A stretch of DNA of 61,336 bases, filler included, from an uncultured Methanosarcinales archaeon (GCA_964485195.1; 5 parts of 5 records of this genome joined end to end with filler, not necessarily neighbours in it); one strand, 5' to 3'; shown: positions 24,001 through 30,000, counted from the first letter of the whole stretch. Numbers are program-made.

Positions 24001-27000
24001 TAAATTCATTGACAGTTAAGCCTAATGGCGTCTTTAACATTCTGACAGAATCTTCCTTGTTTTTCCCTGGGAAACACAACCAGGCAAAGAGGAACACCCT
24101 GCTACAGATTCCCCTCCTTCATCTTGTTCAATGGTGATTCCATAAAATTCTCTTTTATGAAGATTTAACTAATCCTTATCGCGAAACCTTTTTAAACATC
24201 AAATCAACAAAAACATCTATGCTGATACTTCAGGTAAAGGGGCGGGAGATTCTTGATTCAAGGGCAAATCCTACTGTTGAGGCTGAAATAAAAACTGACA
24301 AGGGTGTTTTCAGGGCTGCTGTTCCTTCAGGAGCGTCAACAGGAGTGCACGAGGCCCTGGAATTGAGGGACGGCGGGAAGAGGTTTCTCGGCAAGGGGGT
24401 TTCAAAGGCAGTTAAGAACATTAATGAGGCAATCGCTAAAAGAGTAACGAAAAAGATATTCACAGAGCAGAAGGATTTGGATGATGCTTTGATAAAGCTC
24501 GACGGCACTGCCAGCAAGAAAAAACTCGGCGCCAATGCAATGCTTGCTGTTTCAATGGCCTGCTGCAGGGCATTTGCTGCGGAAAACAACAACAAATTAT
24601 ATGAGTACATTGCGACCATCTCTGACAACAAGGAATTAAGAATGCCCGTGCCTGCCTTCAACATCATCAACGGGGGAAAGCACGCAGAAAACAACATAGA
24701 CATACAGGAGTTCATGATACTTCCTGCCAAGGCAAAGAGCTTCAGGGAAGCTGTAAGGATGGGTGCAGAAACATATCACTATCTCAAGCAGGAAATAGCG
24801 AAAACCCACGGCAAGGACCAGACCAATGTGGGTGATGAAGGAGGATTCGCGCCAAGACTGGAAGGGACTGATGAGGCAATACAACTGATACTTGCTGCCA
24901 TAAAGGACGCAGGTTACAAGAACAAGATATTCCTGGGGATGGACTGTGCAGCCTCGGAGTTTTACAAGGGAAGCAAGTACTATCTTGAGGGAATGGAATA
25001 CAATGCAGAGGAGCTTAGCGAGAGATATTATGAACTGGTCCAGAAATATCCGATAGTGTCAATAGAGGACCCCTTTGCCCAGGACGACTGGCAGAGCTGG
25101 CCAAAACTGATGGAAAAACTGAAAGGCGTGCAGGTTGTGGGGGATGATTTGACAGTCACCAACATCAAGAGGGTTCAGAAGGCGATGGTCCTGAACGCCT
25201 GCAATGCGCTTTTGCTCAAGGTCAACCAGATAGGAACTGTTTCCGAGGCGATAGAGGCTGCCCAGCTGGCAAGGAAAAACAAGTGGAATGTGATTGTTTC
25301 GCACCGTTCAGGAGAGACTGAGGACACTTTCATAGCTGACCTTGCTGTGGGGCTTGGCGCAGGCCAGGTAAAGTCAGGAGCGCCCTGCAGGGGCGAGAGA
25401 ACAGCCAAATACAACCAGTTATTGAGGATAGAGGAGGAGTTGGGGAAGAAAGCCAGGTTCGCAAGAAGGTAACGAAAAATTTACATACTTGTCCTGATTA
25501 TTGGACTTAAGTACATAAAATGGGACAAGAATCCGCGAACCTGGACAAGATTTTAGAAGTGTTCTATGAACAGCCTGAGAAAACCTTCACTGTCAGAGAA
25601 CTTTCAACAAGGACAGGAATGCCTAAATCAACAGTTCACAAATACCTTCAACAGCTAAAAGAGGAGAAGCTCATAACAGGTAACAAGGCATCAGACACGC
25701 TTTTATTCAAAACCAAAAAACACATTTTTACATTGAAAAGATGATAAAAACAGGGCTTGTTGCTTATATAACAAAAGAATTAACTGACATTAATAAACTC
25801 CCCAAGAAGCTGAAAAACAACATTGTAAACGGAATGAAATTATGGGGTTATCTGGAAGTAGGATGAATTTGATAAGATGGGGGAGTGTGAAGAAAGATTC
25901 ATAAGAAAAATAACTCCTGACAAAGACAAGATTGAATCTATTGCCGGAACCGCAATTAATAGGAGAAAAATTCATCCAATCACGGACAATCACTCCTGAA
26001 AATGTGTCGTTCATCATTGAGGGGTTTTATGAAATAATTAAAGGTTGCTGGTCGCGTTCTTATTAAAGAACGGCCTTAAATCAAGCAATCACCAATGTCT
26101 GATTTCATATTTTTACAAAAGATTTCCTGACCGCGAACTTGAGGCAAGCCTTATTTCCCAGATGAGTTGCTTAAGGAATAAGCTGAACTATTATGGGGAA
26201 ATGATAGACATATCGTTCTACAAGAAGAACAAAGAGGATATTCATAATCTTATAGATTTCTTGTTTGAGATTCTCAAATAAACAATGAGCGAGCATCACT
26301 TACAGCTGAACCGGGTTATTTAGCCCTGAAATGTTGCTTGACGACCGCGCCAGGCGGCGCACCAGTCCTGGATAGAAAACTATTTAAATAATTGTCTTAA
26401 AATTCTTGTTATGGAATACGAAGCCAAGGCTGTGATAATAGGAAGGAAGAAGGACGCCGGCCAGTACGGCGCTTTTGTGGCGCTTTTTGACATGAACGAG
26501 CCGCACAAGAGCGGGAAGGCCCCCAAGAAGGTGCTTGACTTTCTGGGGTGCAGGAATGTTAAGATATCAGGGCTTGACTTCAAGTTTATGATAGGCGGGG
26601 CAGACATAATCATCAACAATATCGAAAAGCTTGAGATAGACGAGAAAGACCAGAGAGTAACAATCAAAGGCAAGCAGAACAAGAATGCTTCTTAAAGACA
26701 TAAAGAAAAAGATTCATCCTGAAGTTTATTCTGTGCTTGGCAATCTTGGAATAAATGATTTGAGGCCTGCGCAGGAAAAGGCGATAAATGAGGGGTTGCT
26801 GGATTACAACAATCTTCTTGTGTGCACTCCCACTGCAAGCGGAAAGACCCTTGTTGCAGAGCTGGCCTTGATGAACAGCATCCTCAACAACGTGGGCAAG
26901 GCGATTTATATTGTTCCGCTGAAAGCACTTGCCACGGAAAAATTCAGGGAATTCAAGAAGAGATATGGTCATCTTGCCAGCATTACAGTTTCCATAGGGG

Positions 27001-30000
27001 ACAGGGACAGTGCAGACCCTTACCTCAGCAGGTATGATTTGATAATAACCACCTCGGAAAAGCTTGACTCCCTGATAAGGCACAAGGCGCCCTGGCTCAG
27101 GGACGTGAAAACAGTTGTTATTGATGAAATACACCTTATTGATGATGCGAGCAGGGGGCCGACATTGGAGATATTGATAACGCTTCTGAGAAAACTGCTG
27201 GGCAACATCCAGATAATCGGGTTGAGCGCAACGATAGGGAATCCGAAAGAACTGGCAAGATGGCTGGATGCAAAATTAATAGAGGACTTCTGGAGGCCCG
27301 TGGAATTGCACAAGGGAATTTATTACGAGGGGGAGATTGAGTTTTATTAGGTCTAAAAAATAAGAAAAAATTATTGATACTGCTCAACCAAGGCGCTTAA
27401 ATCCTCTGGTTCTGAGGGCAGTTCAAACACGGAGTCAGAGACTGTTGTTGAATATTCCACAGCCTTTATTTCAGTTGCCTCACCAGCTACCGAGGTTCTT
27501 GCGTAGAGCATCACGTTTTCAGGGGAATAGCAGGTTTCCACATCTGTCAAGCTGCTGGGGTCAGAGAAACCAAAGCATTTGGCAGTCACGCCCGCAATAA
27601 CCCTTGAAGGCCTGGCGGAAACAATCTGCCCTTCCAGGTTTGCGTTGAACTGGTCAGACATAGTCCTTGGCGGAGTGGCATTTCCGAGGTCAACGCACTG
27701 GCCCGGACTGCAGCTGTAAACTATCTGGTCCATAAAGTAAATGGAGCCAGTCTCCCCGCCCACTGCAAGATCATACCTGAGATTTTCTCCCTTGCGGTAT
27801 AATGTTTTTTCTGAAACATTTGTTATTCCTGTTATCTCATATCCAGCCATAAATGTTGAAGCCCTGTTGTCAATTATGTCCTGCAATTCCGCAGTTGCCT
27901 CCTGAGAAGGCTGCGATGCTTTCACTTCTGTTTCTTCCGCCCGCGACGTGCCTGCTTTTTCACCGCAGGCTGTCAACAGGAAAGCAGAAACAAAAATCAA
28001 AAACAAGAATTTGCTTATATTTTCCATTTTTCAGCGTAGTGTCCCACAACCGGCAGTGGAGCGTACTTTCCTGAGGCTGAATTCACGATTCCTATTATGA
28101 TTCCTATTATGAAAAGCATGAAAAGCACAAGCAGGAAAATCCACCCGAGCGCTGTCACTATCCATCCGAGTATCGGCACCCATCCTATTGCAAATGAAAT
28201 TGCCAGGATTACTGCCGAAATTGCCAGGATTACTGCCCAGCAGATAAAAAGCATCAAGCCCTGTTTTGCGTGATAAAGCGCGAACTTGTTGTCCTTTTTT
28301 GCAAGCAAGGGTACCAGAAACAGGATCCAGAGATAGGCAATTATGCCCCAAATCATTCCCTCTTCAACTACTTTGTCTTTTGCCATCTAACCACCTCCTG
28401 ACATCCTTTTTGTCTTTTTATTTTTAAATGTTTTGCAAGAAGATAGAGAGGTGGGCTTTATAATGCATAAGGAATTTTTATTTCTTCCCCTTCCCTTAAT
28501 TTTTCCTTGGCTTTTTCCAATGGAATTAGTTCCACCTTGTCTTCATAGGCCAGTATTGCCACCTTGGAGCCCTCCTTGAATCCTTCCATTTCCCTGATGT
28601 CCTTGGGTATTGCTATCTGCCCTTTTGATGTTATTGTCGCGCTTTTTACCTCAATTAGCCTGGCTTCCATCTTACAAGTAAGAAATATAAGAAATAGTAT
28701 ATAATTGTTTTGGTTTTTCCATTTATTTTCCATATTGGAATCTAAACTCAATATGTCACTACGCNNNNNNNNNNNNNNNNNNNNNNNNNNNNNNNNNNNN
28801 NNNNNNNNTTAATTAATTAANNNNNNNNNNNNNNNNNNNNNNNNNNNNNNNNNNNNNNNNNNNNAAACAAACGCCGCCATTAGCACCACTACCTAACCTT
28901 ATATACTTCCTTTTTTCTCTTGGGAATGGTGGTTTTGAATGGAATTGGCTGTTTTTGGTGCTGGAGGGCTCGCCCTGGGGTTCATAAGGCTGGGGCACAG
29001 ATACATAACAAACAAGACCCTGAAGGACGACCTTCTGGGCTGGATTCTCGTAATTGCGGGACTGTTAGCCCTGTTCCCCTGACAATCAAGCAGCTTTCTT
29101 TATGTCAACTTCCCTTTCATACATGTAAGAATCCTCTGGCCTGATAAATCCTATCAATCTATTATCTGCCAAGAAAGAGATCGTTCCCCTACCTTTTAAT
29201 TCAGCAGTATCTCCTGCCAAAGATGACAAATAGGAAAAATTTTGGGGATCAACAAGCCAGATATTGTCAGTCCTATCATGATTTTTGTTTCTTAAAACCA
29301 CTTTATGGCTTATGTCCCTGTCTCTTTTGCCTAATTCACCTTCATAATCAAATTCACACATAAAATCTTCTCTAAACCCTTTTGCCACGAAGCCATTTCT
29401 CTCATGCGGATTCCGATATTCGTGCGAGGGTATTTTTTTTCCCACCATAAGCCTTCCATCTTCAATTCCAAAAGAAAGCGTTTTGCCCTTTAAATCTCTC
29501 AGGAGAAGCTTTTTCATATGTTCTCCTAAAAAATCAGTAAGAATCTCATCAAAATTCGGGTCATCAACAGCTGCAATGTCAGGCATGTGCCAGACAAGCT
29601 TTCCCAGAAAATAACGCATTTGAGGCCCGCTTGGAACTGTATCTTGACTCATCCATTTTTGCACCCTTACTTCCCTTTGAAGAATATCTATCAAATCTGC
29701 TTTTGCCATAGGTAATCCGAAAAAAGCAAAATTTATTAACCTTTTGAAACCTTTAAAAACAAATCAGTCTTAAAATGAAACAACTCCTCTCCCTCCAGGA
29801 CTGCCTTGACTGCAGGGACTGCTGTTATTATCACAAGGGTTATTTGCATCTTGCTCCTGCTTTTGAGAAAACAGCAAAAGTGAAAAAATCAAAAGTGATT
29901 GACAAGAAAACCCATTTCATTGCAAGATGCTCAAGGAAAAAGGACAGCAGCCATTTTTTCTGCGATTTCAGGGACGGCGACAAGTGCGGTCTGAAGGAAA

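Follow-up and report, generated by a model that had tools for sequence, protein, structure and literature searches.

Hel308 helicase is encoded by two complementary genes across the order Woesearchaeales, consistent with an old and fixed gene fission

In the archaeal genome studied here (G000), the DNA-repair helicase Hel308 (Hjm) is encoded by two complete genes on different contigs, one for the first RecA lobe and one for the rest of the enzyme, and the same division recurs in nearly every genome sampled from its order, Woesearchaeales according to the note. In SF2 helicases, a cleft between two RecA lobes of one chain opens and closes. We put the probability at about 0.8 that the division is an old, fixed gene fission that gave a two-subunit Hel308 helicase; most likely, the two halves reassemble into one motor. 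The window, i.e. the whole stretch of 61,336 nucleotides that was analysed, carries the gene for the N-terminal half (N-half), and its positions 23604-28764 correspond to G000:C4:97673-102833. The features of this locus are collected in Table 1.

Table 1. Features of the N-half locus, in positions of the window
Feature	Position	Strand	Basis or remark
TATA-like TTTAAA, preceding the start of the 94-aa ORF by 23-28 nt	26383..26388	.	Candidate promoter of a putative two-gene unit
94-aa ORF of unknown family, overlapping the N-half start by 11 nt	26411..26695	+	ORF call
Hel308 N-half gene: RecA1 lobe and first 19 residues of the RecA2 lobe	26685..27350	+	ORF, Pfam, alignment
Motif I/Walker A, residues 48-55, TPTASGKT	26826..26849	+	T48 P49 T50 S52 G53 K54 T55 invariant in 21/21 N-halves
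Motif II, DEIH box, residues 147-150	27123..27134	+	D147 E148 H150 invariant in 21/21; sequence read directly
Motif III, SAT, residues 181-183	27225..27233	+	Invariant in 21/21 N-halves
C-terminal tail WRPVELHKGIYYEGEIEFY, residues 203-221	27291..27347	+	Start of Hel308 domain 2; proposed tether

The open reading frame of the N-half lies exactly where the genome-wide survey's note had placed it, and it encodes 221 residues and then its own stop, as a complete gene. In a Pfam search it matched the DEAD domain alone (E 1.3e-33); it aligned with Pyrococcus furiosus Hjm (2zj2) over residues 8-213 (E 7.7e-64) and with Archaeoglobus fulgidus Hel308 over residues 4-219, and the Hel308 models of NCBIfam cover it over model positions 8-217 only. 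The RecA1 residues of Hel308 are all in place, with Q30, T48-T55, P78/L79, T123/E125/K126, D147 E148 H150 and S181-T183 invariant in all 21 N-halves aligned. The gene runs slightly beyond the first lobe. According to the available part of the report on the Hjm crystal structure, domain 1 comprises residues 1-197 and domain 2 residues 198-399 (PMC2636818), and W203 of the N-half aligns with Hjm W198, where domain 2 begins. The earlier description of a cut between the two RecA lobes thus stands insofar as the cut is near the lobe border, but by these limits it has to be moved 19 residues into domain 2, and because of this position the N-half retains a beta-hairpin of the second lobe. In the predicted fold, this tail forms a hairpin with strands at residues 211-214 and 217-220, and W203, R204, P205, V206 and L208 are invariant among the 21 N-halves.

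The remainder of Hel308, which had been assigned to another contig, was located there as a single gene of 1029 aa (the C-half; G000:C1:2041-5130, + strand). Its residues 16-117 align to Hjm 228-330 and residues 630-1029 to Hjm 331-715, the extein matching 2zj2 at E 7.3e-65, while the stretch between, residues 118-629, is the LAGLIDADG intein that the note had described (Pfam Intein_splicing and LAGLIDADG_3; NCBIfam intein_Cterm, TIGR01443). This intein of 512 aa is inserted in motif V with the junctions TPTL|C...VVHN|SAGV, and with its Cys1, endonuclease domain, terminal HN, +1 Ser and insertion at a conserved motif it has the make-up of a class 1 LAGLIDADG intein; this insertion site recurs in G072, G079 and G129. 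The RecA2 residues of the C-half (K26/Q27/F31, F86 H87 H88 G90 L91, T114-L117 with G632/P636/A637, and Q664 with G667-P672) are invariant in 20 of 20 sequences, and the Pfam matches HTH_61 (9e-08), Helicase_dom4_arc (4.5e-29) and HHH_5 (1.3e-08) correspond to the winged helix, ratchet and HhH domains. The best NCBIfam matches of both halves are Hel308 equivalog models. Against the NF002654 cut-off of 887 bits, the N-half reaches 286.7 and the C-half 408.1; a whole protein from a sister order (G403) also falls short of it, at 731.9 bits. Because the gene is split, automatic annotation would label Hel308 as truncated or absent in the order.

Taken together, the two genes are complementary, as had been claimed: they tile Hjm as 8-213 and 228-715, with nothing missing or duplicated. 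In an alignment of the junction that included 21 N-halves and 10 whole proteins from sister orders, the N-halves stop a few columns after a conserved ...EF, and the C-halves begin in the next loop, 10-14 residues ahead of the ...INLALDT helix, so that a single cut point is common to all 21 genomes aligned. This junction bears directly on whether protein trans-splicing through a split intein, or else RNA trans-splicing, brings the products back together in a single chain. Inteins do occur in the lineage, one of them as a cis-splicing element in motif V of the C-half itself, and Nanoarchaeum equitans, a relative, trans-splices tRNA halves, as stated in the portion of PMC3491384 that was available. 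Against this, the claim that no intein fragments lie at the cut was upheld by the Pfam scan of the N-half, which returned no intein domain, and by the junction alignment. The N-halves end 0-15 residues past ...EF with variable tails, the C-halves open with variable leaders of 10-14 residues, and neither a conserved Cys/Ser/Thr junction nor an N-fragment or a C-fragment ending in HN before C/S/T was found. In N. equitans, C/D-box or other RNA adjoins split genes (PMC3491384, in part); the Rfam scan at gathering thresholds of both Hel308 loci in our genome returned three tRNAs only and no such RNA family along the edges of the genes. Moreover, split reverse gyrases are described, in the accessible text of PMC4117796, as separate subunits that form an active heterodimer. 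Rejoining of the Hel308 products is accordingly very improbable.

The division is kept across the order. Among 201 genomes searched at E<=1e-20, the N-half was present in 187 and the C-extein in 186, which, with the one cut point in 21 aligned genomes, sustains the claim of an order-wide trait. Among the 150 matches listed per half, the N-half frames were 208-350 aa in 150 of 150 and the C-half frames were nearly all 440-620 aa; four listed C-half frames of 1024-1056 aa carry the intein, and two shorter ones (359 and 379 aa) are partial matches, one of them starting from base 6 of its contig. In our genome each half is present once, and there is no undivided Hel308 gene besides. The gene is whole, at 687-757 aa, in all ten sister-order genomes of the same class with a clear ortholog. 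In a tree of the N-region, the 23 split rows all group in a well-supported clade (SH-aLRT 95) that takes in just two further sequences, both of them whole genes from sister orders; a single origin of the split may be compatible with the tree. The catalytic motifs are invariant throughout (21 N-halves, 20 C-halves), and non-synonymous change is low, with pN at 0.13-0.21 vs a saturated pS of 0.67-0.79; we give pN and pS rather than dN/dS because synonymous sites were saturated in three of the five comparisons. Two complete frames that tile, a single site across the lineage and purifying selection on both halves are the marks of a fixed split gene of the Nanoarchaeota type, and the Hel308 pair shows all of them. 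Invariant motifs and selection on both halves, together with the shared cut and the whole gene in sister orders, agree with the earlier proposal of an old fission and not a pseudogene.

It could still be argued that the layout is a broken gene or an artefact of assembly or binning, considering that our genome consists of 32 contigs and that each half lies about 2 kb or less from a contig end. However, both genes are complete and have genes on each side, and synteny with G184, of the same genus, continues the contigs: C4 runs on into C16, and C10 precedes the start of C1. The split layout is also found in the single-contig genomes G016, G025, G085, G097, G158 and G320. There were no internal stops among the N-half matches listed; in the C-half listing, about 30 of 150 matches had 1-2 stops, which we took as the gene's own terminal stop. 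Adding the purifying selection on both halves, we give an artefact next to no probability, and a contig-end effect was rejected. The positions of the halves reported earlier for G016, G025, G085, G097 and G098 were reproduced. That the halves are unlinked is true as a rule, with the exception of G127 and G158 among 17 same-contig pairs, where divergently oriented halves are separated by about 3 and 11 kb.

Both halves occur together in 177 of the 201 genomes, the N-half alone in 10, the C-half alone in 9 and neither in 5. Some of the 19 single-half genomes are near-complete (G096 and G106, 100%; G010, G053, G037 and G143, 96-98%). A laxer search for the missing half recovered 43 residues of the N-half in G037, at the edge of a contig, a fragment of 52 residues in G084, and nothing in the eight other genomes re-searched; with so little recovered, the single-half genomes may be real. 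Neither half has a conserved operon partner or shared neighbours in the 20 loci examined per half: enolase stands beside the N-half in 4 of 20, and no C-half neighbour of our genome recurs in more than 3 of 20. Past the N-half stop there is a further 1.4 kb of contig, with a convergent gene (27371-28027, - strand) at a distance of 20 nt. Upstream, the 94-aa ORF, for which Pfam gave no match, is probably the first gene of a two-gene transcript with the N-half in this genome. A similar ORF was seen at just 1 of 20 other N-half loci, so it is not a conserved partner. There was no TATA-like hexamer for the N-half of our genome itself. In the order, one starts at -42 to -22, usually around -30, ahead of 9 of the 21 N-halves and 10 of the 20 C-halves vs 27 of 780 controls, which were coding positions inside genes and thus less AT-rich than spacers. 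From these hexamers, the halves are predicted to have their own promoters.

Such independence would fit a different outcome, in which the halves have diverged and no two-subunit motor forms: the C-half would bind DNA or anneal strands independently of ATP, and the N-half would act alone or with another partner. The genomes with one half alone, the predicted separate promoters and the lack of conserved linkage or shared neighbours speak for it, and archaeal Hel308 is described as annealing strands beside unwinding in the part of PMC10484726 available. Yet the motifs of a two-lobe ATP site are invariant on both sides (Walker A, DExH and SAT in the N-half; motif V and the motif VI arginines in the C-half), and the N-half has kept an invariant WRPV..L tail even though it is part of the other lobe. 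Joint loss of the halves is about five times chance (5 genomes with neither vs 1.04 expected under independent loss; Fisher p 0.0016, uncorrected for kinship and completeness). No alternative partner lobe for either half is present in our genome. The N-half is its only DEAD-domain frame without RecA2; because all four reported Helicase_C frames sit in DEAD-containing genes, no RecA2 other than the C-half turned up without a RecA1 of its own. The four other SF2 helicase genes keep both lobes, these being XPD-like, Hef and Lhr by Pfam and a 403-aa DEAD-box gene in which both domain models match one frame. We therefore consider functional divergence unlikely.

Returning to the two-subunit helicase, we modelled a complex from three chains, the N-half and C-half residues 1-117 and 630-1029, leaving out the intein. 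The model scored 0.84, the best of three controls being 0.27; of solved complexes, 116 of 157 attain the score mark, as do 2 of 215 mismatched pairs, in a calibration that the Hel308 job does not resemble. At least 92% of contacts are shared between runs, with partner pLDDT of at least 88. Because single-chain Hel308 structures are solved and the job is unlike the calibration, this pass, which is to be expected for halves of such a fold, may do no more than mirror those structures, and the model shows likeness to single-chain Hel308 rather than binding. In it, the whole of N-half 204-221 contacts the C-half (675-694 and 1-8), with 208-213 running parallel to C-half 678-684 so that the hairpin is placed in the RecA2 sheet. 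N-half motifs I, II and III (49-51, 150-159, 182-186) face C-half motif VI (660-673), and N-half 162-171 and 189-193 lie against the winged helix (737-746) and ratchet domain.

On the reading that we favour, a Hel308/Hjm gene that was whole in the ancestor was cut a single time, close to the root of the order, in the loop past the first beta-hairpin of the second RecA lobe, and the enzyme would since have consisted of two proteins whose genes are transcribed separately. The 221-aa N-half would bring the Q motif, motifs I, Ia, Ib, II and III and the 19-residue tail WRPV...EFY, while the C-half, once its intein has spliced itself out, would bring motifs IV, IVa (F/YHHAGL, a name from PMC10484726 as partly available), V and VI with the winged helix, ratchet and HhH domains. 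We infer that the halves associate physically, without a covalent link, and act as a helicase: the tail strands would extend the RecA2 sheet of the C-half, RecA1 would pack, as it does in single-chain Hel308, on the winged-helix and ratchet domains, and the ATP site would be rebuilt across the subunit interface. A bolder suggestion, to which we give an outside chance, is that fission, far from being a neutral scar, created a detachable and separately regulated ATP-binding lobe. The C-half alone would then be an ATP-independent DNA-binding or strand-annealing scaffold on which the N-half, co-transcribed in our genome with the 94-aa ORF, switches unwinding on, with the 19-residue hairpin as docking latch and the single-half genomes being real.

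Archaeal Hel308/Hjm (2zj2 from P. furiosus, 2p6r from A. fulgidus, 2va8 from Sulfolobus solfataricus) is a Ski2-like SF2 DNA helicase with the same five domains and motifs in the same order, but as one chain holding both lobes; here there are two genes, cut 19 residues into domain 2, and, unlike those compared, the C-half has a 512-aa intein in motif V. Split inteins such as DnaE likewise distribute one enzyme over two unlinked genes, but there intein halves flank the break and ligation yields a single chain, whereas the Hel308 break is free of intein fragments. N. equitans PolB is another split-intein case. The Nanoarchaeota (N. equitans, Nst1) have split genes for reverse gyrase, Lhr, Glu-tRNA amidotransferase and others, with the same unlinked two-gene coding in a reduced DPANN genome and a site kept among relatives; Hel308 is absent from the list in the available part of that source (PMC3655853), so that ours is another gene in another order, and Lhr, split there, is whole in our genome. 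Naturally split reverse gyrase subunits, those of N. equitans being one example, associate into an active heterodimer (PMC4117796, in part), but the cut there lies between the helicase and topoisomerase modules, while that of Hel308 is inside the motor. Full-text literature searches found no paper describing a split Hel308, and term searches within the text of PMC10946056, PMC11237513, bioRxiv 10.64898/2026.05.13.725050, PMC8407392 and PMC8301817 gave no mention of one. Split genes are already a familiar DPANN theme, which limits the novelty of this case; split Hel308 is a new addition to that known class.

The lobes being separate proteins across a diverse order, the covalent link would seem to be dispensable if they do associate, and split Hel308 offers a test case for how motors tolerate fission. 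The natural cut, placed after the first hairpin of lobe 2, which remains on lobe 1 as a putative tether, is also a ready design for split-helicase complementation. As a clean and rare genomic change the split marks the order and could be used to flag mis-binned contigs. In a pattern scan of named genomes, the 49 loci returned were mostly whole Hel308 genes of other phyla, and two were of the split type.

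The N-terminal half of the DNA repair helicase Hel308 (N-half) is a gene with its own stop, as the genome-wide survey's note had claimed. Its sole Pfam domain is DEAD (RecA1), with an E-value of 1.3e-33, and in a comparison with solved structures its full length matches the first 213-219 residues of archaeal Hel308/Hjm: query 10-218 to residues 8-213 of P. furiosus Hjm (2zj2, E 7.7e-64) and query 4-221 to residues 4-219 of 2p6r. Downstream of the stop lie the convergent gene listed in the table, one more gene and 0.4 kb of contig; the N-half is not cut by a contig end. The C-terminal half (C-half) is encoded on contig C1 of the same genome and carries the LAGLIDADG intein that had been reported for it. 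Its residues 16-117 align to Hjm 228-330, residues 118-629 are the intein (Pfam Intein_splicing and LAGLIDADG_3, NCBIfam intein_Cterm; junctions TPTL|C...VVHN|SAGV), and the remainder, residues 630-1029, corresponds to Hjm 331-715 (E 7.3e-65), with the domains HTH_61, Helicase_dom4_arc and HHH_5.

Features at the two Hel308 loci of the genome under study (G000). The window consists of contig pieces joined via N runs, and its positions 23604-28764 correspond to G000:C4:97673-102833; L007 is the C-half locus on G000:C1.
Feature	Position	Strand	Remarks
94-aa ORF	window 26411-26695	+	no Pfam family; overlaps N-half start by 11 nt
Hel308 N-half ORF	window 26685-27350 (C4:100754-101419)	+	221 codons, TAA stop
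Convergent gene	window 27371-28027	-	218 codons; begins 20 bases past N-half stop
Hel308 C-half	G000:C1:2041-5130	+	1029 residues, GTG start
tRNA gene flanking C-half	L007 43-115	+	
tRNA gene flanking C-half	L007 858-948	+	
tRNA gene flanking C-half	L007 5937-6024	+	

There is exactly one copy of each half in this genome, and a search of it with both halves found no whole Hel308. According to Pfam, the XPD-like, Hef and Lhr helicases each have both lobes in one gene, and the same frame of a 403-aa DEAD-box gene is matched by both domain models; the other SF2 helicases thus being two-lobed, the two Hel308 halves are the genome's only orphan lobes. Judged by synteny with G184, which is of the same genus, C16 follows contig C4 and C10 lies ahead of C1, so the halves are not neighbours whose adjacency is masked by a contig break.

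The split is order-wide, as had been proposed. Among 201 genomes of the order, including the one under study, the N-half was present in 187 (E<=1e-20) and the C-half without its intein in 186; without three genomes flagged unpublished (G112, G132 and G183), the counts are 184 and 183 of 198. The N-half frames span 208-350 aa and lack internal stops among the 150 matches listed of the 201, and among the matches listed nearly all C-half frames span 440-620 aa. Two shorter ones, of 359 and 379 aa, are partial matches, one of them running from base 6 of its contig, and four intein-bearing frames of 1024-1056 aa (G000, G072, G079 and G129, among the matches listed) share the same TPTL| site; the pair of halves in G184 is intein-free. 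The 946-aa C-half of G167 arises only by reading through stops, the true ORF being 512 aa, and the 769-aa frame of G056 starts as other C-halves do. This last locus (L113, G056:C56) is without the motif V intein, and from its coordinates we estimate that the frame runs about 215 codons beyond the usual C-terminus. Both halves occur together in 177 of the 201 genomes, with the N-half alone in 10, the C-half alone in 9 and neither in 5. Independent loss would predict 1.04 genomes with neither (Fisher p 0.0016), a comparison that is descriptive, with kinship and completeness uncontrolled; two of the five, G176 and G006, are 93-96% complete. Near-complete genomes with just one half include G096, G106, G010, G053 and G143, where an assembly gap or a real loss may be the cause.

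The position of the cut was examined by aligning 21 N-halves with as many C-halves, of which one was masked at the junction, and with 10 undivided proteins from sister orders of the same class. All N-halves end within a few columns past a conserved ...(I/V)EF, and all C-halves start in the following loop, 10-14 residues ahead of the helix ...INLALDT(I)..GKQALVF, such that the halves tile the whole protein with no part absent and none duplicated. In the Hjm crystal structure, as far as its domain description in PMC2636818 goes, domain 1 covers residues 1-197 and domain 2 residues 198-399. Since W203 of the N-half aligns with Hjm W198, where domain 2 starts, the N-half comprises RecA1 and the first 19 residues of RecA2, WRPVELHKGIYYEGEIEFY. 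The survey had placed the cut between the two RecA lobes; it lies 19 residues inside the second, so that a hairpin, the putative tether, stays on the N-half. All 21 N-halves keep W203, R204, P205, V206 and L208 of this tail unchanged, and when the N-half is modelled alone (mean pLDDT 88.8) the tail folds into a beta-hairpin (strands 211-214 and 217-220).

Motifs Q, I, Ia, Ib, II and III are all invariant in the 21 N-halves, and so are IV, IVa, V and VI in 20 C-halves. Same-genus pairs gave pN of 0.13-0.21 against pS of 0.67-0.79, which is saturated, and a dN/dS of ~0.10-0.14 where dS was computable. That the split is a pseudogene or an artefact has next to no probability, being refuted by selection and by the closed genomes; the survey's interpretation of an old, fixed gene fission is supported. 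Rejoining of the halves by trans-splicing is highly improbable as well, for neither an intein fragment (in agreement with the survey) nor a conserved junction residue was found at the cut. It could also be argued that the halves act independently, given the genomes in which a single half was found, only two of ten such cases being accounted for by laxer searches; the invariant motifs of both lobes and the retained tail of the N-half speak against independent functions, and we consider this unlikely.

Based on the predicted complex, fold complementation is the most likely mechanism by which the halves would assemble. The N-half was modelled as partner of C-half residues 1-117 and 630-1029, each with our own alignments. 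The score was 0.84, against 0.27 for the best of three controls; 116 of 157 solved complexes attained the mark for this score, compared with 2 of 215 mismatched pairs, in a calibration unlike the present three-chain, own-alignment job. At least 92% of contacts agree between runs, and partner pLDDT is at least 88. The score measures likeness, not binding, and memory of the solved single-chain Hel308 structures may be its source. We favor complementation because of the modelled interface of tail, motifs and helices: every N-half residue from 204 to 221 contacts the C-half, residues 208-213 run parallel to C-half 678-684 (a strand that follows motif VI), the C-half N-terminus (1-8) joins the same region as the tail, motif VI is faced by motifs I, II and III, and N-half helices 162-171 and 189-193 lie against the winged-helix and ratchet domains. 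The hairpin would then complete the RecA2 sheet, substituting for the covalent link that is absent, and domains 1-4 would close into a ring as in single-chain Hel308.

Both proteins match Hel308/Hjm in every sequence feature and differ from it in being two chains. The relevant sections of PMC3655853 describe Nanoarchaeota genes for reverse gyrase, Lhr and other proteins that are split, at a site shared between N. equitans and Nst1, and those of PMC4117796 describe naturally split reverse gyrases, N. equitans being one example, as subunits forming an active heterodimer. The split Hel308 belongs with these split genes, although it is absent from the lists in those sections, and Lhr, which is split in Nanoarchaeota, is whole here. 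A full-text literature search and a term search within papers found no published account of Hel308 being split in these archaea.

In a phylum sample of 301 genomes, of which G354 and G355 are flagged unpublished, most of those outside the order lacked a Hel308 match at 1e-15 with the N-half as query; the sampling covered about 84 genomes of the sister orders. The sole non-short frame among the phylum matches listed is that of G403 (727 aa), a genome of the same class but a different order, and whole Hel308 frames of 687-757 aa were found in 10 of 10 same-class genomes with E<=1e-55. Hel308 may have been lost repeatedly in sister orders, in contrast to the order with the split gene, where both halves are almost always retained. 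Among 49 related loci from named genomes, 45 continue for 420 codons or more, or reach the end of the locus, two stop earlier, after 80 and 154 codons, and two stop 2 codons past the match, one in a Nanoarchaeota single-cell genome and one on a 2.9-kb Methanosarcinales-binned contig. A quick IQ-TREE analysis of the N-region (66 rows) placed 23 of 23 split rows in one clade (SH-aLRT 95), which otherwise contains just the whole genes of G403 and G223; on this tree, the split may have arisen once.

Three further observations concern individual loci. The match at 1501-2160 of L062 (CAYUJZ010000037.1, a 2.9-kb contig of a Methanosarcinales-labelled MAG) is a split-type N-half of 58% identity, its stop lying 2 codons past the match, and groups with the split clade; it is probably a mis-binned contig of this order, transfer being less likely. 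Two Candidatus Omnitrophota-labelled MAGs (L088 and L104) have an undivided Hel308-type gene that shares 47-48% identity across the N-half region and nests among archaeal sequences in the tree, reflecting either archaea-to-bacteria transfer or a binning error. In L098 (Aenigmatarchaeota UBA10154; match 1501-2091) the frame stops 154 codons past the N-half-like region, compared with ~500 in its relatives, possibly through a frameshift or a different cut.

Within the order, both halves lie on one contig in 17 genomes among the matches listed. They are divergent and 3.1 kb apart with three genes between them in G127 (L115, G127:C49:1-7262), and divergent and ~11 kb apart in G158 (G158:C1:92594-105186); the remaining distances are 21, 30, 38, 42, 55, 93, 94, 143, 171, 275, 308, 333, 342, 424 and 492 kb. 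The survey's description of the halves as unlinked therefore holds for most genomes, but not for G127 and G158, whose close divergent halves may be a remnant of a gene-breaking inversion. A neighbourhood comparison across order genomes found no conserved neighbours around either half. TATA-like hexamers stand ~30 nt before the start of 9 of 21 N-halves and 10 of 20 C-halves, as opposed to 27 of 780 intragenic control positions, a sequence pattern suggesting that the two are transcribed as separate and largely leaderless units. In the genome under study, the box CTTTATAAA starts 30 nt before the C-half GTG, with a divergent gene also upstream, and a TATA-like box lies 23-28 nt upstream of the 94-aa ORF. 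Here and in G184 the N-half instead overlaps or directly trails this ORF, and the ORF recurs in the same-genus genome only.

Near the C-half, a long ORF at L007 6979-9000 (-) resembles, by eye only, ATP-dependent DNA ligase in its C-terminal part and has an apparent inserted block of intein and homing-endonuclease-like sequence; it seems to be another DNA-metabolism gene with an intein, 2 kb from the C-half. Two of the three tRNA genes flanking the C-half are 88-91 nt long, which may reflect an intron or a long variable arm.
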